Source of the DNA: a virus
Taxonomy: Duplodnaviria > Heunggongvirae > Uroviricota > Caudoviricetes
IMG/VR virus record: IMGVR_UViG_2740892031_000002
Strand: one strand, 5' to 3'
DNA length: 29,553 nucleotides
Under the pieces are notes generated by a model. That model saw only the letters and a program-made list of their open reading frames with translations, did not search any database and had not been told where the DNA came from. Below are positions 989 to 29,553 of this stretch, piece after piece. Made by a program: the position numbers and the translations under genes. How positions within the stretch are numbered: position 1 is the first letter of the stretch; the number at the start of each line of letters is the position of its first letter.

Positions 989-1888
989 TTAACGCAACAA
1001 TGGACAATCTGGTGGTAATCGACAACGCAACGCCGCCGGAAGTATTTCAATATGGAAGTTTTGCCCACTCAACGGTTCGCCATCAAGATTAAAAGTGATT
1101 TCGTGTGGGGCTTGTATATCAAACCACGACGAAGCACCTTCGATAATATTCGGGTTATCTTCGTCAGATTTTAAGGTTGATACGAGAGTCGGAATAATTT
1201 CATCGCCGGTAAAAATGCGCAGTTGCAGCAAGCCATCGTTAATTAATGCGTTCGGGCACAATTGTTGACCGCCACCGGCCTGACGCCCGTTACCAATACC
1301 AATGACCAGGGCGTCACCTTGCCAGTGAAAGTTTTCACCGCGGATTTCACAACGGTCCGGTTGCAGAGTGTCCATGCGCATTAAGCCATGAATGATGTAA
1401 GAGACGCCACCCAGCGCGGCTTTTAATTTTTCCGGCGTTTCTGTGGTAATACGCGTCCCAAACCCGCCTGTCGCCATATTAATAAAACAGGTTTGTTTGT
1501 TGACCTGCGCCATATCTATCGCAATGGCGTTACCGGCAATTGCCAGTTTCAGCGCCTTATCCAGTGCCTCAGGAATCCCTACACTAGTGGCAAAATCATT
1601 GGCAGTTCCTAATGGTAAAATTCCCAGCGCGGGTATGTCATCCCCCTCACATTGAATCAATGCCGTAGAAACTTCATTAATGGTGCCATCGCCACCACCG
1701 GCAATCACTGTTGCGACGCCTAACTTCCGGGCCTCCTCTACAAATCGTGCAGCATCGCCTTTCTCCCAGGTGATCCGCACATGGATCGTCATTCCTTCCT
1801 CACGCAACAGCATAATTGCTTCGCGCAAGGGTAGATTGTCAGTACTTTTGCCATTAAGAATCAGTAAGCTGGCGGGAAATTCTGCCAT
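989..1888 (-). CDS. yegS: Lipid kinase YegS (diacylglycerol-kinase catalytic-domain family)
   Basis: 299-aa ORF with the DAGK_cat glycine-rich motif ([13 protein letters not shown]); full-length match to my recollection of E. coli YegS. Confidence 0.85.
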
Positions 1889-3054: not shown

Positions 3055-4068
3055 TTACTCTACTGTGGACACTGTGTGGACACTCTCGGCCTCAGTACCA
3101 CCTCTTAGCGGATTAAGAGAAATGGCGTCCTGAAGGTACTCTGGCGCAAAATGAGCGTAAACCATAGTTTGCTCAATCCGCGTGTGACCTAGTATCCGTT
3201 GTAGCGTGATAATACTTCCTCCATTAATCATGAAATGAGTGGCAAAGCTGTGCCTTAGTGCATGTGTGGCTTGCCCCATTGGCAAATCCGGTTTTATTGC
3301 TTTCATTGTTCGTCTGAAGCGAGGGTAATCAGCATCAGGGAATAAAAAACCTCGTTTGTTATCCGCGATCATTTTGGCAACAGCCTCTGAGATCGGGACG
3401 GTGCGTGGTTTGTTTGTTTTCGTTTTAACAAACGTGACGCGGTTATGGATGATATTTTCTGCTTTCAAACGAGCTGCTTCTCCCCAACGTGCTCCTGTAC
3501 TTAGGCAAAGAATCGCAATCTTTTTATTGTCGCCGTCAAGTGCTGCAAGCAGTAAGGCTATTTCTTCCTGTGTGAGATAGCCTGTTTCTGGTTTTTCCTC
3601 CTTAAGCCTCTTTGTCCCTCTGATAGGATGTTCACCAAAGAATAACTCCGCTTCAATCAGGGCTGTAAACATGCCGCTAATACATGTTAAATCACGATTG
3701 ATACTCGAAGGTTTAATACCCTGACTTCTTCGGGTGGCGCAGTACTGGCTGATAAGGGATTTCGTGATTTGAAATGCGCATGGGTCATTCGTTATTTTTG
3801 TGAAGATTTCAATTTTTCCAAGATTAGATTTCCCATGCTCTTCGTGTTTACCCTTTAAATCCCACCAGATCTGTGTCAGTTCCGACAGACGTCGTTTGTC
3901 TGTTGGTTTTGATAGCCATTCTTTATTGTGGTGGTTGTACAACGTGTATTTTTCGAAAGCGACAGCTTCGCTTTTCTTATCAAACTTCCTACGGATGCGT
4001 TTTCCGTTACGTCCAGTAGGGCGGATGTCCACTTCATATCGACCATCATCGAGTTTTTTGATTGCCAT
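3055..4068 (-). CDS. int: P2-type tyrosine integrase
   Basis: 337-aa ORF; N-terminus MAIKKLDDGRYEVDIRPTGRNGKRIRRKF and C-terminal catalytic region (HALRHSFATHF ... RILGHTRIEQTMVYAH) as in P2 Int. Confidence 0.95.
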   Translation of the reverse strand: MAIKKLDDGRYEVDIRPTGRNGKRIRRKFDKKSEAVAFEKYTLYNHHNKEWLSKPTDKRRLSELTQIWWDLKGKHEEHGKSNLGKIEIFTKITNDPCAFQITKSLISQYCATRRSQGIKPSSINRDLTCISGMFTALIEAELFFGEHPIRGTKRLKEEKPETGYLTQEEIALLLAALDGDNKKIAILCLSTGARWGEAARLKAENIIHNRVTFVKTKTNKPRTVPISEAVAKMIADNKRGFLFPDADYPRFRRTMKAIKPDLPMGQATHALRHSFATHFMINGGSIITLQRILGHTRIEQTMVYAHFAPEYLQDAISLNPLRGGTEAESVHTVSTVE

Positions 4069-6644: not shown

Positions 6645-8934
6645 AGCCTCCGGGCGTTTTGTCCCTCCGTCAGCATTTGCTGCAGGCACCGGTAAGGCGT
6701 TTACCGGTGCTTATGCATGGAACGCGCCACGCGAGGCCGTCGGGCGCGAAAGACCCCTTACACGTGACGAGATGCGTCAGGTGCAAGGTGTTTTATCCAC
6801 GATTAACCGCCTGCCTTACTTTTTGCGCTCGCTGTTTACTTCACGCTATGACCACATCCGGCGCAATAAAAGCCCGGTGCACGGGTTTTATTTCCTCACA
6901 TCCACTTTTCAGCGTCGTTTATGGCCGCGCATTGAGCGTGTGAATCAGCGCCATGAAATGAACACCGACGCGTCGTTACTGTTTCTGGCAGAGCGTGACC
7001 ACTATGCGCGCCTGCCGGGAATGAATGACAAGGAGCTGAAAAAGTTTGCTGCCCGTATCTCATCGCAGCTTTTCATGATGTATGGGGAACTCAGTGATGC
7101 CTGGGTGGATGCGCATGGCGAAAAAGAATCGCTGTTTACGGATGAGGCGCAGGCTCACCTCTATGGTCATGTTGCTGGCGCTGCACGTGCTTTCAATATT
7201 TCCCCTCTCTACTGGAAAAAATACCGTAAAGGGCAGATGACCACGAGGCAGGCATATTCTGCCATTGCCCGTCTGTTTAACGATGAGTGGTGGACTCATC
7301 AGCTTAAAGGCCAGCGTATGCGCTGGCATGAAGCGTTACTGATAGCTGTCGGGGAGGTCAATAAAGACCGTTCTCCTTATGCCAGTAAACACGCCATTCG
7401 TGATGTGCGTGCGCGCCGCCAGGCAAATCTGGAATTTCTTAAATCGTGTGACCTTGAAAACAGGGAAACCGGCGAGCGCATCGACCTTATCAGTAAGGTG
7501 ATGGGCAGTATTTCTAATCCTGAAATTCGCCGGATGGAGCTGATGAACACCATTGCCGGTATTGAGCGTTACGCCGCCGCAGAGGGTGATGTGGGGATGT
7601 TTATCACGCTGACCGCGCCGTCAAAGTATCACCCGACACGTCAGGTCAGAAAAGGCGAAAGTAAAACCGTTCAGCTTAATCACGGCTGGAACGATGAGGC
7701 ATTTAATCCAAAGGATGCGCAGCGTTATCTCTGCCGCATCTGGAGCCTGATGCGCACGGCATTCAAGGATAATGATTTACAGGTCTACGGTTTGCGTGTC
7801 GTCGAGCCACACCACGACGGAACGCCGCACTGGCATATGATGCTTTTTTGTAATCCACGCCAGCGTAACCAGATTATCGAAATCATGCGTCGCTACGCGC
7901 TCAAAGAGGATGGAGACGAAAGAGGAGCTGCGCGAAACCGTTTTCAGGCAAAACACCTTAACCGGGGCGGTGCTGCGGGATATATCGCGAAATACATTTC
8001 AAAAAACATCGACGGCTATGCACTGGATGGTCAGCTCGATAACGATACCGGTAAGCCGCTTAAAGATACTGCCGCGGCTGTTACCGCATGGGCGTCAACG
8101 TGGCGCATTCCGCAATTTAAAACGGTTGGACTGCCGACAATGGGGGCTTACCGTGAACTACGCAAATTGCCTCGCGGCGTCAGTATTGCTGATGAGTTTG
8201 ACGAACGCGTCGAGGCTGCTCGCGCTGCCGCAGACAGTGGTGATTTTGCGTTGTATATCAGCGCGCAGGGTGGGGCAAATGTCCCGCGCGATTGTCAGAC
8301 TGTCAGGGTCGCCCGTAGCCCGTCGGATGACGTTAACGAGTACGAGGAAGAAGTCGAGAGAGTGGTCGGCATTTACGCGCCGCATCTCGGCGCGCGTCAT
8401 ATTCATATCACCAGAACGACGGACTGGCGCATTGTGCCGAAAGTTCCGGTCGTTGAGCCTTTGACTTTAAAAAGCGGCATCGCCGCGCCTCGGAGTCCTG
8501 TCAATAACTGTGGAAAGCTCACCGGTGGTGATACTTCGTTACCGGCTCCCACACCTTCTGAACACGCCGCAGCAGTGCTTAATCTGGTTGATGACGGTGT
8601 TATCGAATGGAGTGACCCGGAGGTTGTGAGGGCGCTCAGAGGTGCATTAAAATGCGGACTGAGAACACCAAATCGTCAGCAAAGAAACGGAAGTCCGTTA
8701 AAACCGCATGAAATAGCGCCATCAGCCAGGCTGACCAGGTCGGAGCGATTGCAAATTACCCGTATTCGCGTTGATCTTGCTCAGAACGGTATCAGACCTC
8801 AGCGATGGGAGCTTGAGTCGCTGGCGCGTGGGGCAACCGTAAATTATGACGGGAAAAAATTCACGTATCCGGTCGCTGATGAGTGGCCGGGATATTCAAC
8901 TATAACAGAGTGGAATCAATTTGATGACGGGTAA
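6634..8934 (+). CDS. A: Replication initiation endonuclease A (rolling-circle initiator)
   Basis: Tracked ORF 6592..8934; P2 gpA begins MAVKASGRFVPPSAFAAGTGK, which corresponds to ATG at 6634 (766 aa). Long-range identity to P2 A by eye. Confidence 0.93.
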   Translation: MAVKASGRFVPPSAFAAGTGKAFTGAYAWNAPREAVGRERPLTRDEMRQVQGVLSTINRLPYFLRSLFTSRYDHIRRNKSPVHGFYFLTSTFQRRLWPRIERVNQRHEMNTDASLLFLAERDHYARLPGMNDKELKKFAARISSQLFMMYGELSDAWVDAHGEKESLFTDEAQAHLYGHVAGAARAFNISPLYWKKYRKGQMTTRQAYSAIARLFNDEWWTHQLKGQRMRWHEALLIAVGEVNKDRSPYASKHAIRDVRARRQANLEFLKSCDLENRETGERIDLISKVMGSISNPEIRRMELMNTIAGIERYAAAEGDVGMFITLTAPSKYHPTRQVRKGESKTVQLNHGWNDEAFNPKDAQRYLCRIWSLMRTAFKDNDLQVYGLRVVEPHHDGTPHWHMMLFCNPRQRNQIIEIMRRYALKEDGDERGAARNRFQAKHLNRGGAAGYIAKYISKNIDGYALDGQLDNDTGKPLKDTAAAVTAWASTWRIPQFKTVGLPTMGAYRELRKLPRGVSIADEFDERVEAARAAADSGDFALYISAQGGANVPRDCQTVRVARSPSDDVNEYEEEVERVVGIYAPHLGARHIHITRTTDWRIVPKVPVVEPLTLKSGIAAPRSPVNNCGKLTGGDTSLPAPTPSEHAAAVLNLVDDGVIEWSDPEVVRALRGALKCGLRTPNRQQRNGSPLKPHEIAPSARLTRSERLQITRIRVDLAQNGIRPQRWELESLARGATVNYDGKKFTYPVADEWPGYSTITEWNQFDDG

Positions 8935-9853: not shown

Positions 9854-10945
9854 TTATTCTTCGGTTCTATAGTTACTAATGTATGATCGTGGAGTGGCTG
9901 TTTTCCATCCTGCCCTTTCAGGAGCATTATAAAAATGGTACTTACCAAGCCCCTCGGTGGCGATAACTTTCGCTCCTCGTCGAGTAAAGGCATTAATTAC
10001 AGCTTGATGGGGATGTTTATCTGAACCTGGGGCACATGATACAAATGCGGTTATCTCCCTTTTTTCGCCTTCATTTACAATGTTACCAACAAGTTTATCG
10101 AGAACATCAGGGCCTACATTTCTCCGGCTACCATGATGAGGTACTTGAATGAATCTTAATGATTCTTTATTAATGTATTGGGAGGCTTGATCTAAGGCTG
10201 TTATACCAGCATCGCCAGTGAACACTAACGTTCTTCCATCAATCTCAAGTTTCAAAATGACACTTGAGTTATTTTGTGCCGAGGTGGTATCTTCATTATC
10301 AATACCTTCATCAGTAAACCATTCAGCAACGTAATCAATAAATTTCTTCGTTTTTTCAACTACAGACTCAAAGACTGCTTTTAGTACTTCAAATCCAGCT
10401 GTATCCTCAGCTTTTTTGGGCATTCTTGCGAAATCAGGTATTAGAGTCTCATAGTAAGATTGGGTTGGCCCGATAACAACCAGAGTAGCATTATCCCAGG
10501 TCATTCCTTGAAAAGGCTCTTTTATTTCAATTCCTTTTTTTTCCGCTAATTTGACAGCGTCATAAGCTTTTTGTAAGTTTTCTTTCATTCGATTTGCAAT
10601 ACTGGCATCAGTTATCCTGCCATCTGCAAACTCACTTGCGAGACCTTGATTATGTTCCCAAGGCTTATGAATCCAAAACTCTTTTACTTCTGCATTTTCT
10701 AGAACAGATGTAAGTCCACCGACGTGGTCACCATCGGGGTGTGTGGAGATAAGCAAGTCAATAGTTTTTGTGCGGTAGTATTTTTCAATATGCTCAATGA
10801 CTTGTTCTCCGGTGCTGGCATATCCTGCATCAATAACGACAACTTTTTGTTCATCTCTTGAACCATGTAGGTTTCCCCATCTGATGCAGATCGCATCGCC
10901 GCTTTTTTTTTCGCCAACAGCTAGAAAATCAATTTCGTAACCCAT
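9854..10945 (-). CDS. Metallo-beta-lactamase-fold hydrolase, ComEC/Rec2-like subtype (putative metal-dependent nuclease); hotspot cargo
   Basis: 363-aa ORF. ComEC-type MBL signatures in order: IDFLAVGEKKSGDAICIRW, KVVVIDAGY, LISTHPDGDHVGG (variant of the HxHxDH motif), LVFTGDAG, QVPHHGS. AT-rich. Confidence 0.8.
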   Translation of the reverse strand: MGYEIDFLAVGEKKSGDAICIRWGNLHGSRDEQKVVVIDAGYASTGEQVIEHIEKYYRTKTIDLLISTHPDGDHVGGLTSVLENAEVKEFWIHKPWEHNQGLASEFADGRITDASIANRMKENLQKAYDAVKLAEKKGIEIKEPFQGMTWDNATLVVIGPTQSYYETLIPDFARMPKKAEDTAGFEVLKAVFESVVEKTKKFIDYVAEWFTDEGIDNEDTTSAQNNSSVILKLEIDGRTLVFTGDAGITALDQASQYINKESLRFIQVPHHGSRRNVGPDVLDKLVGNIVNEGEKREITAFVSCAPGSDKHPHQAVINAFTRRGAKVIATEGLGKYHFYNAPERAGWKTATPRSYISNYRTEE

Positions 10946-11107: not shown

Positions 11108-11545
11108 CTATGACACTGACGCAACCAGATTAACGCCGTGAGTCAGCAGATTTGTAATCACACCGGCAATGACCCCAGGAGTCCCATCTTTCACCGCACT
11201 GATCACTTTATCCCCCATCGTTTCATTTCCACCAAGCACCTCGGGTTTTTTGTTAAGAACTGTGAGCGCTTTTTCAGTAAGTCGAACATCGTAAAAATAC
11301 GACTGATGGTCTGTGTTGTACTGAATGTACCCGTTTTCACAGAGAAAATTGAATGTACCTTCAACCACACTACGCAACTGATTTAACGCTTTCATTTCTG
11401 GTGAGTTAAGTTGGTCAAAGTAGTCATCAGGTAGCGCGGCGTTAAATTTGTCGTAGTTAATCACCTGTGGTACGGGAAAATTTTCCCATAGTACTGCAAA
11501 GATTTCCGCCGTTTGTTGGTTAAATAAATCGAGATTTTTCGACAT
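11108..11545 (-). CDS. Hypothetical protein (~145 aa), upstream of and co-directional with the MBL hydrolase
   Basis: Tracked ORF 11108..11647 (179 aa). In-frame ATGs at 11557 and 11545 give 149 or 145 aa; none of the three starts has a convincing Shine-Dalgarno, so the start is uncertain. Hydrophobic, glycine-rich C-terminus (GTPGVIAGVITNLLTHGVNLVASVS). No homolog recognised. Confidence 0.6.
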   Translation of the reverse strand: MSKNLDLFNQQTAEIFAVLWENFPVPQVINYDKFNAALPDDYFDQLNSPEMKALNQLRSVVEGTFNFLCENGYIQYNTDHQSYFYDVRLTEKALTVLNKKPEVLGGNETMGDKVISAVKDGTPGVIAGVITNLLTHGVNLVASVS

Positions 11546-11873
11546 GCAAAATTCCATTTCTTTTGATAATGAGTGGGTTAAACGCTGGACGAGGCAGATT
11601 ACCACTCTGGCACAAAACAATGATCTTAGTTCACGCGAAGTTGACATATATACCGATAAGCTGGTTGCGCAGGCAACTAGCGTAGAACTCGCTCAGGTCA
11701 TCAAGATGCTATTGAATTATATTCGAATGAACAAATAAAATGATCTGTATCAATCTGTTAGGTGTCGTTTGTAAAAATGTGTGGACACGATTGTTCTGCT
11801 AATTGTTGTCAACATGTGCGTCAACAGTGAGATTGGTGCATTGCGCGGCCAGTGACAACTTTAAAAATTGGCC

Positions 11874-21493: not shown

Positions 21494-22279
21494 TTATGAG
21501 TGGTTTTTATTTGATGCTTTGTATTCTAAAACCTTCTTATTGGCGTAAAGGAATTTTGTGTATGACAGGAATATAAATAGACCTGAAATAAAATAGATTA
21601 GGGATATTATTAATAATGTTTTTCTGTGGCTGTTATTATCTTTAATCTCCTGACTTAACCATTCGGAGTCCTCCTCGTTTAGCTGTAAGAGCTTATTGCA
21701 GGCGATTGCAGGAAGTGTGTCTGTTACAAAAGTGTTCTGCAGTCTCTTGCAATCGGCAATGCTAAAAGCTTTATAGAACTTATCTGTTTTATTGTCGGAG
21801 AACAAAAGAACCTTGTCATTATAAACATGGTACATCATATTTTTATATGGTATGGCTATGGCATCCTCTACTATGGCAGATTGCTCGTTGTGTATGCAAC
21901 ATGCGAAGATAATATAAAGAATTCCGGCCAGGACTGCACTCATTGTTTTTGTGATGCATGGCGGTTCTGTTATGTCTCCCCAGAAGCGAGTAAGGAAAAA
22001 ATCCGATGTTTTTAGTTTTCCATCAATCAGCCCCTGCTGTATCATTCTCACATCTTCGATGCCTGATACATTGATTCCGTTAAGTATTTTAAATAGTTGA
22101 ATGTCGCGCCACTCGCGGTCCAGTCTTTTTAATTTTTTGTCTGAATATCCAAATTTGAAATAATGTGCAATAAGCCTCATAAGGTTACTTTTACCAAAGC
22201 TAAAAAATGCTAATACTGCAAAGACCAAAAGATACAAAACGATTAGCTCCCACACATTAGTCACATTATAGCTGACCAT
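21494..22279 (-). CDS. Hypothetical multi-pass membrane protein at the S-V (P2 orf30) accessory locus
   Basis: 261-aa ORF; AAGGAG Shine-Dalgarno 6 nt upstream of the ATG. Hydrophobic helices near the N-terminus (VWELIVLYLLVFAVLAFFSF), mid-protein (TMSAVLAGILYIIFACCI) and C-terminus (LLIISLIYFISGLFIFLSY). Strongly AT-rich; no homolog recognised. Confidence 0.8.
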   Translation of the reverse strand: MVSYNVTNVWELIVLYLLVFAVLAFFSFGKSNLMRLIAHYFKFGYSDKKLKRLDREWRDIQLFKILNGINVSGIEDVRMIQQGLIDGKLKTSDFFLTRFWGDITEPPCITKTMSAVLAGILYIIFACCIHNEQSAIVEDAIAIPYKNMMYHVYNDKVLLFSDNKTDKFYKAFSIADCKRLQNTFVTDTLPAIACNKLLQLNEEDSEWLSQEIKDNNSHRKTLLIISLIYFISGLFIFLSYTKFLYANKKVLEYKASNKNHS

Positions 22280-22362
22280 TACGCTCTCCTTGAATGTTGT
22301 CTGGTGGTTCTACAAATGAATCCAGATAGCATAACTTTTATATATTGTGCAATCTCACATGC

Positions 22363-22998
22363 ATGGACACTCTCGCAAATATTCAGGAACTCGCGCGCGC
22401 ACTGCGCAACATGATTCGTACCGGCATTATCGTTGAAACCGACCTTAACGCCGGTCGCTGCCGTGTGCAGACCGGCGGCATGTGCACCGACTGGCTTCAG
22501 TGGCTGACCCATCGCGCCGGACGTTCGCGCACATGGTGGGCACCTTCCGTGGGGGAACAGGTGCTGATTCTGGCCGTGGGCGGTGAACTCGACACGGCGT
22601 TCGTTCTGCCGGGGATTTATTCCGGCGATAACCCTGCGCCGTCTGCGTCGGCGGATGCCCTGCATATCCGTTTCCCTGACGGGGCGGTGATTGAGTATGA
22701 ACCCGAAACCAGTGCGCTTACGGTAAGCGGAATTAAAACGGCCAGCGTGACGGCTTCTGATTCTGTTACTGCCACGGTGCCGGTGGTCATGGTGAAAGCA
22801 TCAACCCGCATCACTCTGGACACGCCGGAGGTGGTCTGCACAAACAAGCTGATCACCGGCACGCTGGAAGTGCAGAAGGGCGGGACGATGCGCGGCAACA
22901 TTGAACACACCGGCGGTGAACTCTCATCAAACGGTAAGGTACTGCATACCCATAAACACCCCGGCGACAGCGGCGGCACAACCGGGAGTCCTTTATGA
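22363..22998 (+). CDS. V: Baseplate central spike protein
   Basis: Tracked ORF 22345..22998; ATG at 22363 gives 211 aa matching P2 gpV (C-terminal HTHKHPGDSGGTTGSPL). Confidence 0.9.
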   Translation: MDTLANIQELARALRNMIRTGIIVETDLNAGRCRVQTGGMCTDWLQWLTHRAGRSRTWWAPSVGEQVLILAVGGELDTAFVLPGIYSGDNPAPSASADALHIRFPDGAVIEYEPETSALTVSGIKTASVTASDSVTATVPVVMVKASTRITLDTPEVVCTNKLITGTLEVQKGGTMRGNIEHTGGELSSNGKVLHTHKHPGDSGGTTGSPL

Positions 22999-24788: not shown

Positions 24789-27407
24789 ATGAGCACGAAA
24801 TTTAAAACCGTTATCACTACTGCCGGAGCCGCGAAGCTGGCAGCCGCTACTGTTCCCGGCGGGAAAAAAGTAAACCTGTCTGCAATGGCTGTGGGTGACG
24901 GTAATGGCCAATTGCCGGTGCCGGATGCCGGTCAGACGAAACTGGTGCATGAAGTCTGGCGTCACGCTCTGAATAAAGTCAGTGTGGATAACAAGAATAA
25001 AAACTATATCGTGGCTGAACTGGTTGTTCCGCCAGAAGTGGGCGGCTTCTGGATGCGTGAGCTTGGTCTGTATGATGATGCCGGAACACTGATTGCGGTA
25101 TCCAACATGGCAGAAAGCTATAAGCCAGAACTGGCTGAAGGCTCCGGACGTGCGCAGACCTGCCGCATGGTTATTATTCTCAGTAACGTGGCGTCCGTTG
25201 AGCTGAGTATTGATGCCAGCACAGTGATGGCGACGCAGGATTACGTCGATGACAAAATCGCAGAGCATGAGCAGTCCCGCCGCCATCCTGACGCCACGCT
25301 GACAGAGAAAGGTTTTACTCAGTTAAGCAGTGCAACAAACAGCACCAGTGAGTCACTGGCGGCAACGCCAAAAGCGGTCAAGGCTGCGAATGACAACGCA
25401 AATTCACGTCTGGCGAAAAATCAGAACGGTGCAGATATCCAGGATAAATCAGCTTTTCTGGACAATGTTGGCGTTACCAGCCTGACGTTTATGAAAAACA
25501 ATGGCGAAATGCCGGTTGATGCTGATCTGAATACGTTTGGTCCTGTTAAGGCTTATTCAGGTATCTGGTCTAAAGCAACATCCACCAACGCAACACTGGA
25601 GAAAAATTTCCCGGAAGATAATGCTGTCGGTGTGCTTGAGGTTTTTGCTGCCGGCAATTTTGCAGGTACGCAACGCTTTACCACAAGAGACGGCAATGTA
25701 TACATGCGTAAACTCGCCAATAAGTGGAATGGCACTGATGGTCCGTGGGGCGTATGGCGTCACACTCAATCAGCGACCCGCCCTTTGAGTACGACTATAG
25801 ACCTGAATACGCTTGGAGCCGCCGAGCATCTTGGTTTATGGCGTAACAGTAGCTCGGCTATAGCTTCATATGAACGCAATTATCCAGAGGAAGGCGGCTT
25901 TGCTCAGGGGACGCTTGAGATCCTCGAAGGCGGGAATTATGGAAGAACGCAACGTTATACCACTCGCCGTGGAAATATGTACGTCCGCTGCCTTGCGGCA
26001 AGCTGGGATGCATCAAATCCGCAGTGGGAACCGTGGTTAAGAGTTGGTCATCAGTCAGAGAGTCGTTATTACGACGGGGATTTGAATGATGTGACTTCAC
26101 CAGGTATTTACAGCGTTACAGGTAAAGCGACCAACGGTCCAATACTGGACGGAAACGGCGTGACAGTCCTCGGTATTCTGGAAGTGTTGAGGCGCTTTGA
26201 TGGTGTTAACGTATGGCAGCGTTATACAACTGCCGGAACAGGTGCAACCCTTAAAGGTCGCACGTTTGAGCGCGTCTATACCGGCAGCTCGTGGAGCGAA
26301 TGGCGGGAAGTCTACACCTCGTATTCACTTCCCCTGAATCTGGGTATCGGCGGTGCAGTGGCAAAGCTCACCAGCCTGGACTGGCAGACCCACGACTTTG
26401 TGCCGGGCAGTCTGATAACCGTTCGGCTTGATAACATGACCAACATTCCCGACGGTATGGACTGGGGCGTCATTGATGGCAACCTGATAAACATCGCAGT
26501 TGGTCCGAGTGATGATTCCGGTACGGGGCGCTCAATGCATGTATGGCGCAGCACTGTAAGTAAAGCGAATTACCGCTTTTTTATGGTGCGTATTTCAGGA
26601 AATCCGGGAAGCCGCACGATCACGACAAGACGTGTGCCAATTATCGACGAAGCTCAGACATGGGCGGCGAAACAGACATTCAGCGGTGGTCTTTCAGGCG
26701 AACTGTCCGGCAATGCGGCTACAGCAACAAAGCTGAAAACGGCAAGGACAATTAACGGCGTGAAATTTGACGGCTCGGCAAATATTGAAGTATTTCCGCC
26801 AGGTGTTCCGCTGCCATGGCCATCAGATACACCGCCTGCAGGCTATGCAATCATGCAGGGACAGACGTTTGATAAGGCAGCATATCCGAAACTGGCTATT
26901 GCCTATCCTTCTGGTGTTATTCCAGATATGCGCGGCTGGACAATCAAGGGCAAACCCGCCAGTGGGCGTGCCGTATTGTCACAGGAACAGGACGGGATTA
27001 AATCGCATACTCACAGCGCCAGTGCGTCAAATACGGACTTAGGAACGAAAACGACCAGTTCATTTGATTACGGGACAAAAACAGTCAGTACGTTTAACCA
27101 CGGCACAAAATCAACCAATACTTCTGGCAATCATACACATACCGTCGGTTTTGCTGTGAGCGTGCAATCAGGCGGTGCAGATTATGGTGTTCCGCGAAGT
27201 GATAAAGGTGCTACGACTACAAGTTCATCAGGCAATCATGCACATACAGTCGACATTGGAGCACATAACCATACTGTTGGTATTGGTGCACATTCACACA
27301 CTGTTGCTATTGGCTCACACGGGCATTCCATTACCGTAAATGCTACTGGCAATACCGAAAACACCGTCAAAAACATCGCATTTAACTATATTGTGAGGCT
27401 TGCATAA
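24789..27407 (+). CDS. H: Tail fibre protein H (P2-type N-terminus; extended variable distal part with three tandem modules, a collar-like segment and HxH repeats)
   Basis: 872-aa ORF; N-terminal ~240 aa match P2 gpH ([20 protein letters not shown]...); contains the [19 protein letters not shown] fibre motif; longer than P2 H as I recall it. Confidence 0.9.
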
Positions 27408-27985
27408 TGGCTTTCAGAATGAGTGCAGAAGCACAAACTATCCGCGTTTTCAATTTACTTGATGGAACCAATGAGTTTATTGGCGAAAGTGATGCATATA
27501 TTCCGCCGTATACTGGCCTGCCTGCAAACAGTACAGATATTGCACCACCTGATATTCCTGCTGGTTATGCAGCCGTTTTCAATGCAGATGAAATGAAATG
27601 GGAGTTGATGGAAGATCATCGCGGAAAGACTGTCTACGAAACGAAAACGGGAGCAGCCATTTATATTTCTGAACTTGGCGCATTACCTCCAGACGTGACA
27701 GCCATTTCCCCGGAGGGGGATTATCAGAAATGGAACGGAAATGCGTGGGTGAATGATGAGAATGCAGAGCGTGATGCACTTGTCAGAGCGGCTGAGTCTC
27801 AGAAGAAAGAGCAGATTGCATATGCAGGTGAAATCATTGCCATGCTGCAGGATGCTGTCGATTTAGATATGGCTACCGAGGAAGAAAAGTTAAGCCTGAC
27901 ACACTGGAAAAAATACCGTGTGCTACTTAATCGCGTTCAGCCGGAAAATGCTCCGGATATAGAATGGCCTGAAATGCCGCAATAA
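27407..27985 (+). CDS. G: Tail fibre assembly chaperone (Tfa family)
   Basis: 192-aa ORF immediately after H with 1-nt start/stop overlap; C-terminal ...IEWPEMPQ typical of Tfa proteins. Confidence 0.85.
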
Positions 27986-28313
27986 ATCGTATTAGCTCTG
28001 GTGTGAGATTACTCATCTATGGCACAGAGTAAAACCTAATCTGACTGTCCGCTCTGTGCTAGGAGCGGACGTGATGCATATCTGTCACCAAATTTAATGT
28101 GCCACTACAAACAGAGTATATAGTTGAATATTATAGTGCACCCCGGCCTCATGAATATAACGGTGGATTACCGCCGAACGAGTCGGAAAATAGATACTGG
28201 AAAAACTCTAAAATCGAGGCCAGTTTTTGTTGTTCTCTACAATAATAATCGGATTTTCCCATGACAAGTTTAATAGTATTTAGGTGCCTGAAGTGAAGTT
28301 GAAGAAGCTATTG

Positions 28314-29393
28314 ATGAAAGTTGTGAAAGTGGTAAAGGAGCAGGTTCTAAGTACCGTTATTTCGGGAATAATAGGCATAGCGGCTACAGTAGGGCTTTTC
28401 CATTTCACTTCACAGCCAATACGATCTGCTGATGTTCGCGAAAAATTAGTTGAAATGGCTCGGGAGTGCATCCAGCAGCAGCTTGCCACACATTTGGACT
28501 CAGTGGCGTTTGACTCAGTGGCTAGCGAGTCTCTCGATCTAAGCACCTCAAACTCCGTTGTAGTCTACGGAAGAACTGTGAGCACAAATGGTGCCCTTAG
28601 CCGTTTCCTGATGGTCTTCGAGCCCTCTGGACAGAGTTTGATAGATAAGGTGGTTGGCAGACCTGGATTCTACGATATTGGGTATTGGGCAATCATCCCA
28701 GACGCAGGGGACGACGAGGTTGTGGCTTCTTCAGTAAACATTGAAGACCTCGACAAAGATGGTAACAAGGACATACTAGTCCGCTTAAAGTCAACTTACG
28801 CGGATGGTGTATCCAAAGGGCTTCTTATACTTAAAAAGGATATCCATGATGTATGGCATTTGATGGGGCTTCCATCAATGACAGAGATCATGCATTCCAT
28901 TGCTGCAGGTCAGCCTCCCCAGCCGGAAGGTCTTCACCTTCCACTTCCGGCAATACAATGGTTTAGTAATGACGAAAAACTCAAACCAAAGTCTGATATC
29001 AAACAATATCTTAATTGGGAAATTGACGAAGATAACTTGCAGGTCGCTGATTCCACTGGAAATCATTCTTTTTGGATGTTCAGAAACGGCACCAAGATAA
29101 AAATGTTCGAGAATGGACAAGCCGGCTACAAGCACTTTGGTGTACTGGTCAACATCAATGATGAAGAGGCGATACAGGGAAGGCATCATCTCATGGTCAG
29201 CTTTTTCAAGATAGAGAATAATAGTTTGGTTCCTGATCCGAATTGGAACTGGGCCTATCCCATGTTCTCTATCGGATTAGAGGATAGCCAAGAAGTTGAA
29301 TTAAGTGACATGCAGGAAGCGGGCTTACAAGCTCATGTTTCTGGTAGCTCCGTTTTCGGCCTGACAGAGTTTGGGAAAATGGACTCAGATTAA
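28314..29393 (+). CDS. Hypothetical N-terminally membrane-anchored protein at the G-FI (P2 Z/fun) accessory locus
   Basis: Tracked ORF 28284..29393 starts at GTG; in-frame ATG at 28314 (MKVVKVVKEQ) is equally plausible. One N-terminal TM helix (VLSTVISGIIGIAATVGLF) followed by a ~330-aa soluble domain. AT-rich, separated from G by ~300 bp of AT-rich non-coding DNA; no homolog recognised. Confidence 0.75.
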   Translation: MKVVKVVKEQVLSTVISGIIGIAATVGLFHFTSQPIRSADVREKLVEMARECIQQQLATHLDSVAFDSVASESLDLSTSNSVVVYGRTVSTNGALSRFLMVFEPSGQSLIDKVVGRPGFYDIGYWAIIPDAGDDEVVASSVNIEDLDKDGNKDILVRLKSTYADGVSKGLLILKKDIHDVWHLMGLPSMTEIMHSIAAGQPPQPEGLHLPLPAIQWFSNDEKLKPKSDIKQYLNWEIDEDNLQVADSTGNHSFWMFRNGTKIKMFENGQAGYKHFGVLVNINDEEAIQGRHHLMVSFFKIENNSLVPDPNWNWAYPMFSIGLEDSQEVELSDMQEAGLQAHVSGSSVFGLTEFGKMDSD

Positions 29394-29553
29394 TATTCGC
29401 TAACCTTACCAACGAAGAGCAGGTCACAGGTATGGCCTAATTATGTTTTCAGAGGAGTCAGGGCTCAAGAATGCCCCCTGCGTATTTTCATGAAAGGAGA
29501 TCACTCAATAACTTCCATCGAGATCGGGTAATAACATTTGAACAGATCGCTGA

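Follow-up and report, generated by a model that had tools for sequence, protein, structure and literature searches.

The Z/fun slot of P2-like prophages, which lies between the tail-fibre assembly gene G and the sheath gene FI, is a hotspot that has already been described (bioRxiv 10.1101/2024.10.15.618418; PMC13586616), and the presence of defence cargo at this hotspot is likewise known (the same two reports and PMC9122126). In the P2 record, the slot holds fun(Z), annotated 'cloned gene blocks growth of T5', which agrees with the statement of an earlier reading, made from the letters alone (the sequence-only reading), that P2 carries a T5-resistance gene here. Most characterized defence systems are cytoplasmic, and only a few families are known to stop phages in the periplasm or at the inner membrane (SieA, Imm/Sp, gp15 and SNIPE). 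P22 SieA is a membrane protein that blocks injection (PMC10883804), and SNIPE is a membrane-bound defence with a nuclease that acts at genome entry (PMC13190303). Blockers that work in the periplasm or inner membrane are mechanistically informative on genome delivery. Here, we analyzed the cargo gene of the Z/fun slot in the IMG/VR virus record IMGVR_UViG_2740892031_000002, a stretch of 29,553 nucleotides (the window) that is a P2-like prophage of E. coli. The gene encodes a membrane-anchored protein of about 360 amino acids. Its genomic context, predicted topology and predicted fold lead us to favour, tentatively, a role as an envelope-level phage-exclusion protein of the superinfection-exclusion type.

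The slot is defined by its flanking genes. The tail-fibre gene H (24789-27407) is followed by the assembly gene G and then by the cargo gene. In uninterrupted copies of the prophage, the cargo gene is followed by the sheath gene FI, the tube gene FII, E/E', T, U and D; therefore, this is the G–FI (Z/fun) slot. The two features that define the locus are as follows.

27407 to 27985, plus strand: tail-fibre assembly gene G, the left flank of the hotspot (Pfam Caudo_TAP, E 2.8e-40; RefSeq 'tail fiber assembly protein', WP_001516655.1).
28293 or 28314 to 29393, plus strand: coding sequence of the membrane-anchored protein, 366 amino acids from GTG 28293 or 359 amino acids from ATG 28314 (WP_001599801.1; phrog_15038; neither entry has an assigned function).

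The sequence-only reading had placed the gene correctly, in both slot and coordinates, as judged by the G and FI flanks and the P2 record. Its description of the DNA as AT-rich holds in a modest sense, with a GC content of 45.0% in the gene and 40.4% in the spacer, compared with 49.9% in the window and 56.6% in the capsid/tail module. In intact prophages, the P2 backbone homology restarts about 230 bp past the stop codon of the cargo gene, just 5' of the pF promoter region. Since the homology on the left side ends near 28075, the cargo measures about 1.55 kb. Up to 29478, the sequence from 27900 onward matches the chromosomes of many E. coli isolates of human origin, O25b:H4 strains among them, at 100% identity, and 53 of the 5,426 complete genomes of E. 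coli searched contain at least 80% of the region 27900-29553. The gene itself is fixed in this prophage and is identical over the compared region in 20 listed genomes of these 53 carriers. We take the O25b:H4 clinical carriers to be the ST131 lineage.

The listed open reading frame (ORF) spans 28284-29393, with 369 codons from the first GTG, and 28284 was not taken as the start. The start codon is either GTG 28293 or ATG 28314. The former has ideal Shine–Dalgarno spacing, and a Pantoea orthologue (L012) carries ATG at the same codon. The latter is the start in RefSeq and PHROGs and is kept in all orthologues, one of which (L039) lacks the upstream extension. The ratio of nonsynonymous to synonymous substitution rates (dN/dS, omega) against the orthologues is 0.18–0.25. 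Together with the family clusters and the predicted local distance difference test score (pLDDT) of the structural model, this confirms that the gene is real and intact and is no chance ORF; the claim of a real gene for a membrane-anchored protein of this size thus stands. The two soluble domains give values of 0.12–0.19 (0.17–0.19 for domain 2), whereas the N-terminal tail and transmembrane (TM) helix give 0.6–0.8. This difference argues that the weakly constrained TM helix serves as an anchor and that the function resides in the soluble domains.

To describe the architecture, we used an AlphaFold2 model built on a 38-sequence alignment, which has a mean pLDDT of 90.3 and a predicted template-modelling score (pTM) of 0.84; a single-sequence run gave a pLDDT of 33. 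The parts of the protein, in the 359-residue numbering, are as follows.

28344 to 28406, plus strand: signal-anchor TM helix, V11-F31 (Kyte–Doolittle hydropathy 2.13; helix 2-32 in the model).
28425 to 28904, plus strand: domain 1, about residues 38-197, a 20-residue helix and eight strands, with a putative cystatin/NTF2/CarG-like alpha+beta fold.
28746 to 28772, plus strand: DxDxDGxxD loop, D145-D153, a putative FG-GAP-like Ca2+ site, with D145 and G150 nearly invariant across the family.
28998 to 29390, plus strand: domain 2, about residues 229-359, beta-rich in the model, with the conserved elements RNG, D283, H291, D308, W311-N312-W313 (WNW) and S319.

The two domains are joined in the model by a Pro-rich linker (residues 198-228), and D164, W181 and N258 are also conserved. 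The DxDxDGxxD loop is predicted to bind calcium on the basis of its motif. A single N-terminal TM helix, as claimed by the sequence-only reading, is borne out by the hydropathy, by the model and by its occurrence in 36 of the 38 aligned family members. The large domain had also been called rich in aspartate and asparagine, a weak bias at best (Asp 7.4%, Asn 4.4%). Ahead of the TM helix is a Lys-rich tail, MKVVKVVKEQ, or MKLKKLLMKVVKVVKEQ when the upstream start is used, with three to six Lys residues. Across the family alignment, the N-terminal flank of the helix is more positive than the C-terminal flank in 22 cases compared with eight for the reverse (Wilcoxon p 0.004). Under the positive-inside rule, this favours an N-in/C-out orientation with a periplasmic ectodomain. 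The DxDxDG loop counts in the same direction, since loops of the FG-GAP type belong to secreted proteins. Thus, the predicted topology is N-in/C-out, and the large domain is probably periplasmic. The protein sequence contains no lipobox (L-[AS]-[GA]-C), and a site context resembling that of signal peptidase is absent as well; the sole cysteine lies about 20 residues past the TM helix, in ...ARECIQ.... A lipoprotein was ruled out on the absence of the lipobox, and no similarity to exclusion lipoproteins of the Llp/Cor type was seen.

The same topology bears on an abortive-infection defence, in which a phage product would be sensed by the large domain, and the TM helix, by oligomerizing or recruiting a partner, would damage the membrane and so kill or arrest the infected cell. 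TM effectors are frequent in defence systems (Rousset 2022, PMC9122126), the hotspot and defence-island context would suit this mechanism and exclusion equally, and several orthologues have a HEPN-like gene for a 245-residue protein upstream. However, an N-in protein would expose just 10–17 residues to the cytoplasm and could not sense events there, and the opposite N-out/C-in orientation is disfavoured by the Lys-rich tail. The near-neutral evolution of the TM helix (omega 0.6–0.8) next to constrained soluble domains is also unlike that of a sequence-specific pore former, and calcium loops of the FG-GAP type are extracytoplasmic. We consider an abortive-infection mechanism unlikely.

The family is small, with 15 clusters at 90% identity and 72 representatives at 50%, about 40 of them full length. 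Two further profile searches, each capped at 8000 candidates, brought in only a few more. Most representatives are metagenomic singletons, one is from a metagenome-assembled genome of Desulfobulbaceae, and the distribution spans Enterobacterales to Desulfobulbaceae. A locus search with close alignment returned three genomes and near-identical prophages. Most homologues lie outside prophages, in non-phage islands, an integrative and conjugative element (ICE) and chromosomal defence islands. We read 16 distinct neighbourhoods and counted the defence genes within about 5 kb. Recognized defence genes occur in about 10 of the 16 (restriction–modification, GmrSD/HEC-05, NsnA, Dnd, McrBC, CBASS, DUF4238, reverse transcriptase and phospholipase D (PLD) nuclease), and others are without recognizable ones. 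The types of neighbourhood are as follows.

P2 hotspot, in E. coli and E. albertii.
CP4-57-like integrative islands.
GmrSD/HEC-05 with an NgoMIV restriction–modification system; a lambdoid tail-tip gene adjoins in some contigs.
NsnA-type GmrSD_N with a RiboL-PSP HEPN gene and an integrase, in Pantoea.
Type II restriction–modification system.
PLD-type nuclease.
Dnd cluster.
McrBC with type II CBASS.
AAA_13 ATPase.
Cargo region of an ICE (L038) with DUF4238, EcoRII and a reverse transcriptase; tra genes are nearby.
DndB-like gene with YaaC.

The conserved DNA begins only about 45–70 bp upstream of the gene, and the neighbours vary between contexts. As judged from these comparisons, the gene is a self-contained single-gene module that is independent of its neighbours. 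The defence genes in about 10 of the 16 neighbourhoods give real but indirect backing to the suggestion of the sequence-only reading that this is an anti-phage or surface-modifying conversion gene. Conjugative entry exclusion was rejected, since tra genes are near in one context only and the gene lies there in the cargo region.

The 245-residue protein mentioned above raises the alternative that the cargo gene is the orphaned half of a two-gene system, split by an insertion sequence (IS) of the IS3 family and inert or altered in function here. Its gene has no Pfam or PADLOC match and is located 160–180 bp upstream of the cargo gene in four groups of orthologues whose neighbourhoods differ (L003, 5086-5823; L012, 7087-7817, frameshifted; L035, 1116-1853; L039, 2441-3175). 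The protein contains the motif IRNIMAH, an R-N-x3-H pattern reminiscent of HEPN RNases, and it co-diverges with the orthologue (83–88% identity). Either a partner role or a separate, neighbouring single-gene system is conceivable for it. In the window, an IS3-family remnant fills the position of this gene. However, besides the window, the L007/L027 type and every distant member lack this gene and have unrelated genes upstream. In L012, the gene for the 245-residue protein is frameshifted while the 366-residue ORF is intact. Selection on the solitary E. coli copy is not relaxed relative to a partnered orthologue (omega 0.18), and the identity of this copy among the 20 listed carriers also speaks against this alternative. 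The orphaned-half explanation is therefore rather improbable in our view. In the L007/L027 type, the upstream genes encode proteins of 275 and 251 residues (L007, 3921-5507; L027, 5922-7508), the latter with hydrophobic N-terminal segments, and neither has a Pfam or PADLOC match; a GmrSD/HEC-05 gene is located downstream.

We compared the protein with known families at the levels of sequence, profile and structure. Pfam and NCBIfam gave no match, and no catalytic family was recognized. In PHROGs v4, 37 of 38 family members match phrog_15038, which has no annotated function. There was no match by tblastn in 50,697 deposited phage genomes (INPHARED), no significant Foldseek match among the BFVD structures and no match among the PLSDB plasmids. 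Foldseek found nothing significant in the PDB, although PliI-Ah was among the listed matches, and PDB sequence searches with the full profile and the domain-1 profile returned only E values of 0.1 or worse. The accession WP_001599801 was not found in the searchable literature, nor in the supplementary data of either Rousset 2022 or DefensePredictor. On the basis of these searches, the family is uncharacterized, with a predicted architecture that differs from those of characterized exclusion proteins.

A Fun(Z) homologue or a virion or tail-fibre accessory protein is favoured by position only: the gene adjoins the tail-fibre genes and takes the place that fun(Z) has in P2. Homology to Fun(Z) was ruled out by BLASTP (E 6) and by hhalign with the 38-sequence profile (probability 0.09%), so the protein is no Fun homologue and belongs to an unrecognized family, the latter in agreement with the sequence-only reading. 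The empty INPHARED and BFVD searches, the TM anchor, the unannotated PHROG and the homologues in non-phage islands, defence islands and an ICE all speak against a structural role. Close homology to Fun and a structural role in virions were the two outcomes that the sequence-only reading had named as refuting its idea. We regard a Fun(Z)-like or structural identity as highly improbable.

The closest folds are those of CarG, PliI, VirB8/DotI/TraM, Tim44 and Tim21, all of which fall below family thresholds or significance. Some of them are binding domains of the periplasm or the intermembrane space that sit on N-terminal anchors, and the others are secreted. The CarG-like family (PF21955) was matched by one of 27 domain-1 sequences (E 0.0097) and PliI (PF16743) by one of 27 (E 0.2), and neither was matched by the protein of the window itself. 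CarG and PliI act biochemically as binders or inhibitors. These echoes favour a periplasmic protective or immunity protein directed against a threat other than phage, such as a beta-lactam-like antibiotic, a lysozyme, or a toxin or bacteriocin that attacks peptidoglycan; the protein would then work as an anchored binder or inhibitor similar to PliI or CarG. However, all of the fold similarities are below family thresholds, and known PliI and CarG proteins are small and secreted (about 120–160 residues), compared with an anchored two-domain protein of 360 residues. Genes for type VI secretion, Rhs, bacteriocins or antibiotic biosynthesis occur in none of the 16 contexts, most of which contain anti-phage systems. 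Protection against a non-phage threat thus has a low probability. The family profile also reaches FG-GAP_3 repeat proteins through about residues 132-171, and the matched proteins carry sorting domains of the type IX secretion system. A weak profile match to the calcium-binding repeats of the YesW/YesX lyases was seen as well. In Pfam, FG-GAP_3 was matched by two of the 27 domain-1 sequences only (E 0.11), below the threshold. Membership in the FG-GAP/VCBS propellers was rejected, since the motif is present in one copy without tandem repeats and the Pfam threshold is not reached. With a single DxDxDG segment, the UniRef label 'VCBS repeat-containing protein' on one orthologue is overstated and misleading.

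Eight observations were counted for the exclusion reading: the hotspot has documented defence cargo (P2 Fun(Z)), defence neighbours recur in independent contexts, the gene is a self-contained module, the predicted topology places the large domain in the periplasm, the closest folds are anchored binding domains or secreted proteins, the soluble domains are far more constrained than the TM helix, no catalytic family is recognized, and membrane proteins that block injection have precedents (P22 SieA and SNIPE). We propose the following mechanism. The gene would have arrived in the Z/fun hotspot as single-gene cargo beside an IS3-family element, of which a stub was left behind. The product would be a bitopic inner-membrane protein with a cytoplasmic Lys-rich tail, one TM anchor and about 330 residues in the periplasm. 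The periplasmic part would consist of two beta-rich domains, the first of which would resemble CarG, cystatin, NTF2 or VirB8 and carries the putative FG-GAP-type calcium loop. The target of these domains may be something that is present in the periplasm or at the inner membrane while the phage genome is delivered; candidates are the tail tip, the tape-measure or ejection proteins, a muralytic enzyme carried by the tail, or the channel of the host that these use. Binding would stop DNA entry, and the cell would not be killed. The gene, its anatomy, purifying selection, fold class, conserved TM helix and DxDxDG motif, its independence from its neighbours and its context are shown by the analysis, whereas the topology, calcium binding, anti-phage function, target and blocked step are inferred. 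A bolder version of this proposal is a calcium-dependent periplasmic decoy or inhibitor, tethered to the inner membrane, whose CarG/PliI/cystatin-like domains would neutralize a tail-borne phage muralytic enzyme or the ejection/tape-measure conduit on its way through the periplasm. As a stand-alone gene moving among prophage hotspots, ICEs and defence islands of distant bacteria, it would represent an undescribed class of envelope immunity, an outcome that we hold to be improbable.

The DNA around the gene bears on both its origin and its expression. The features are as follows.

27986 to 28075, plus strand: P2-backbone stretch after G, which aligns with P2 3' of G to about 28075, where the homology ends.
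About 28047 to 28070, plus strand: perfect 8-bp hairpin, GTCCGCTC...GAGCGGAC, without a T-run, read from the sequence.
28110 to 28251, plus strand: 3' remnant of an IS3-family (IS911/ISEc52-like) transposase pseudogene at the left edge of the cargo (RefSeq, blastn).
28250 to 28292, plus strand: conserved 5' block of the gene, defined by orthologue comparison, with a Shine–Dalgarno-like AGGTG at 28282-28286.
29394 to 29478, plus strand: 3' cargo flank, identical to intact prophages up to 29478; a terminator scan places a weak terminator-like hairpin at 29421-29438.
29479 to 29553, plus strand: left end of the IS21-family element ISEc12 between the cargo and FI, placed by alignment with an uninterrupted prophage and with strain KE54 at its ISEc12 junction.

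The non-coding stretch of about 300 bp upstream of the gene, which the sequence-only reading had treated as one AT-rich unit, is present but composite: about 90 bp of P2 backbone, the IS3-family transposase remnant and the conserved leader of the gene. At the equivalent place, RefSeq annotates an 'IS3 family transposase, incomplete, missing N-terminus', and transposase genes of IS3/IS911/ISEc52 match query positions 125-266 at 78–91% identity by blastn. The location of this remnant directly 5' of the leader suggests that IS-mediated capture put the cargo in the hotspot. The leader of about 45 bp hardly varies among orthologues whose neighbourhoods are otherwise unrelated. On the 3' side, the end of ISEc12 begins 85 bp after the stop codon of the cargo gene, and the window terminates within this element, which is probably an assembly break. 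With ISEc12 in this position, the upstream genes may be cut off from pF/FI and the prophage disabled. Intact prophages also carry a hypothetical ORF of 55 residues (WP_023908562.1; L001, 7683-7850, minus strand) after the cargo gene and ahead of FI; it lies past the IS insertion and is therefore outside the window.

Several points weigh against envelope-level exclusion. First, none of the 5027 defence-protein models of PADLOC-DB v2.0.0 (2023) gave a hit at E values up to 1, and no annotated PHROG was matched at E 0.001, including the SieA, Imm, Sp, Llp, Cor and gp15 types as far as they are present; thus, the protein has no homology in these two collections to any characterized exclusion or defence protein. 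Second, the topology is predicted only, and with the ATG start the charge bias of the window protein is small (+2 compared with +1). Third, the defence-island context is equally compatible with other functions in stress or competition. Fourth, the solitary prophage copy might lack a needed partner in the 245-residue protein. Finally, a sigma-70 promoter scan and inspection of the orthologue leaders found no plus-strand promoter upstream of the gene; since the IS remnant has also replaced the native promoter region beyond the 45 bp or so next to the gene, its expression in the lysogen is unproven. The probability left after all of the named readings belongs to something else. Unannotated hotspot cargo is common, and this candidate is unusually well backed by context, structure and selection. 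It is also a cheap candidate to test, as it is rare, encoded by one gene, confidently folded and recurrent near defence genes. An exclusion phenotype, if true, would bear on the phage susceptibility and phage therapy of the carrier E. coli lineage; without anti-phage activity, the gene would be one more among the approximately 89% of hotspot cargo genes that are unannotated.

The window contains further features of interest. At its left end, a YegS-like lipid kinase gene (989-1888, minus strand; DAGK_cat and YegS_C) lies outside the prophage; thus, the window begins in the host chromosome, near an ORF of integrase size (3055-4068). A 363-residue protein with a metallo-beta-lactamase fold (9854-10945, minus strand; Pfam E 6e-12) and a 179-residue protein with no Pfam match (11108-11647, minus strand) are encoded in the old/tin-type hotspot, which lies between the portal gene and a gpA-like replication gene; this is probably the other candidate cargo implied by the sequence-only reading, which called the Z/fun gene its second. 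Two abutting ORFs of 261 and 128 residues with no Pfam match (21494-22279 and 22279-22665, both minus strand) are located between the tail-completion genes and the baseplate gene V and constitute a third cargo slot, within the tail genes; the former is the hypothetical protein WP_001599798.1 in RefSeq. The C-terminus of the tail-fibre protein H (26900-27400) contains a His-rich run of G-x-H-x-H repeats, including SGNHTHTV.

Finally, we compared the protein with each of the known systems that it resembles. P2 Fun(Z) (AAD03288.1) occupies the same G–FI hotspot as non-essential cargo with a GC content below that of the backbone, as is the case here. However, Fun(Z) has 528 residues, is encoded on the opposite strand and, by reading of its sequence, lacks an N-terminal TM anchor, compared with the anchored 359 or 366 residues of the present protein. 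Only the slot is therefore shared, and not the gene. The Fun(Z) phenotype, a block of T5 growth and sensitivity to FUdR, is taken here from the annotation of the P2 record. The FG-GAP/VCBS repeat proteins share one strand–loop–strand segment, DxDxDGxxD(I/L), which matches their repeat consensus, but they form tandem-repeat beta-propellers, whereas the cargo protein has a single copy and no propeller. The CarG-like (PF21955) and PliI (PF16743) proteins are small, soluble, single-domain secreted proteins, in contrast to a TM-anchored protein with an unmatched second domain of about 130 residues. The fold may also resemble those of VirB8/DotI/TraM and Tim44/Tim21, which place an NTF2-like domain on an N-terminal anchor. 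These families share no sequence similarity with the cargo protein, which is encoded outside secretion operons and has an extra domain and the calcium loop. With regard to the proposed mode of action, P22 SieA and SNIPE would be the nearest analogues, as single inner-membrane proteins, encoded by prophages or islands, that act at genome entry. No homology between either of them and the cargo protein was detected in PADLOC or PHROGs, and the nuclease domain of SNIPE is absent. For SieA, no large periplasmic part with two domains is known, a feature that is predicted for the protein described here.

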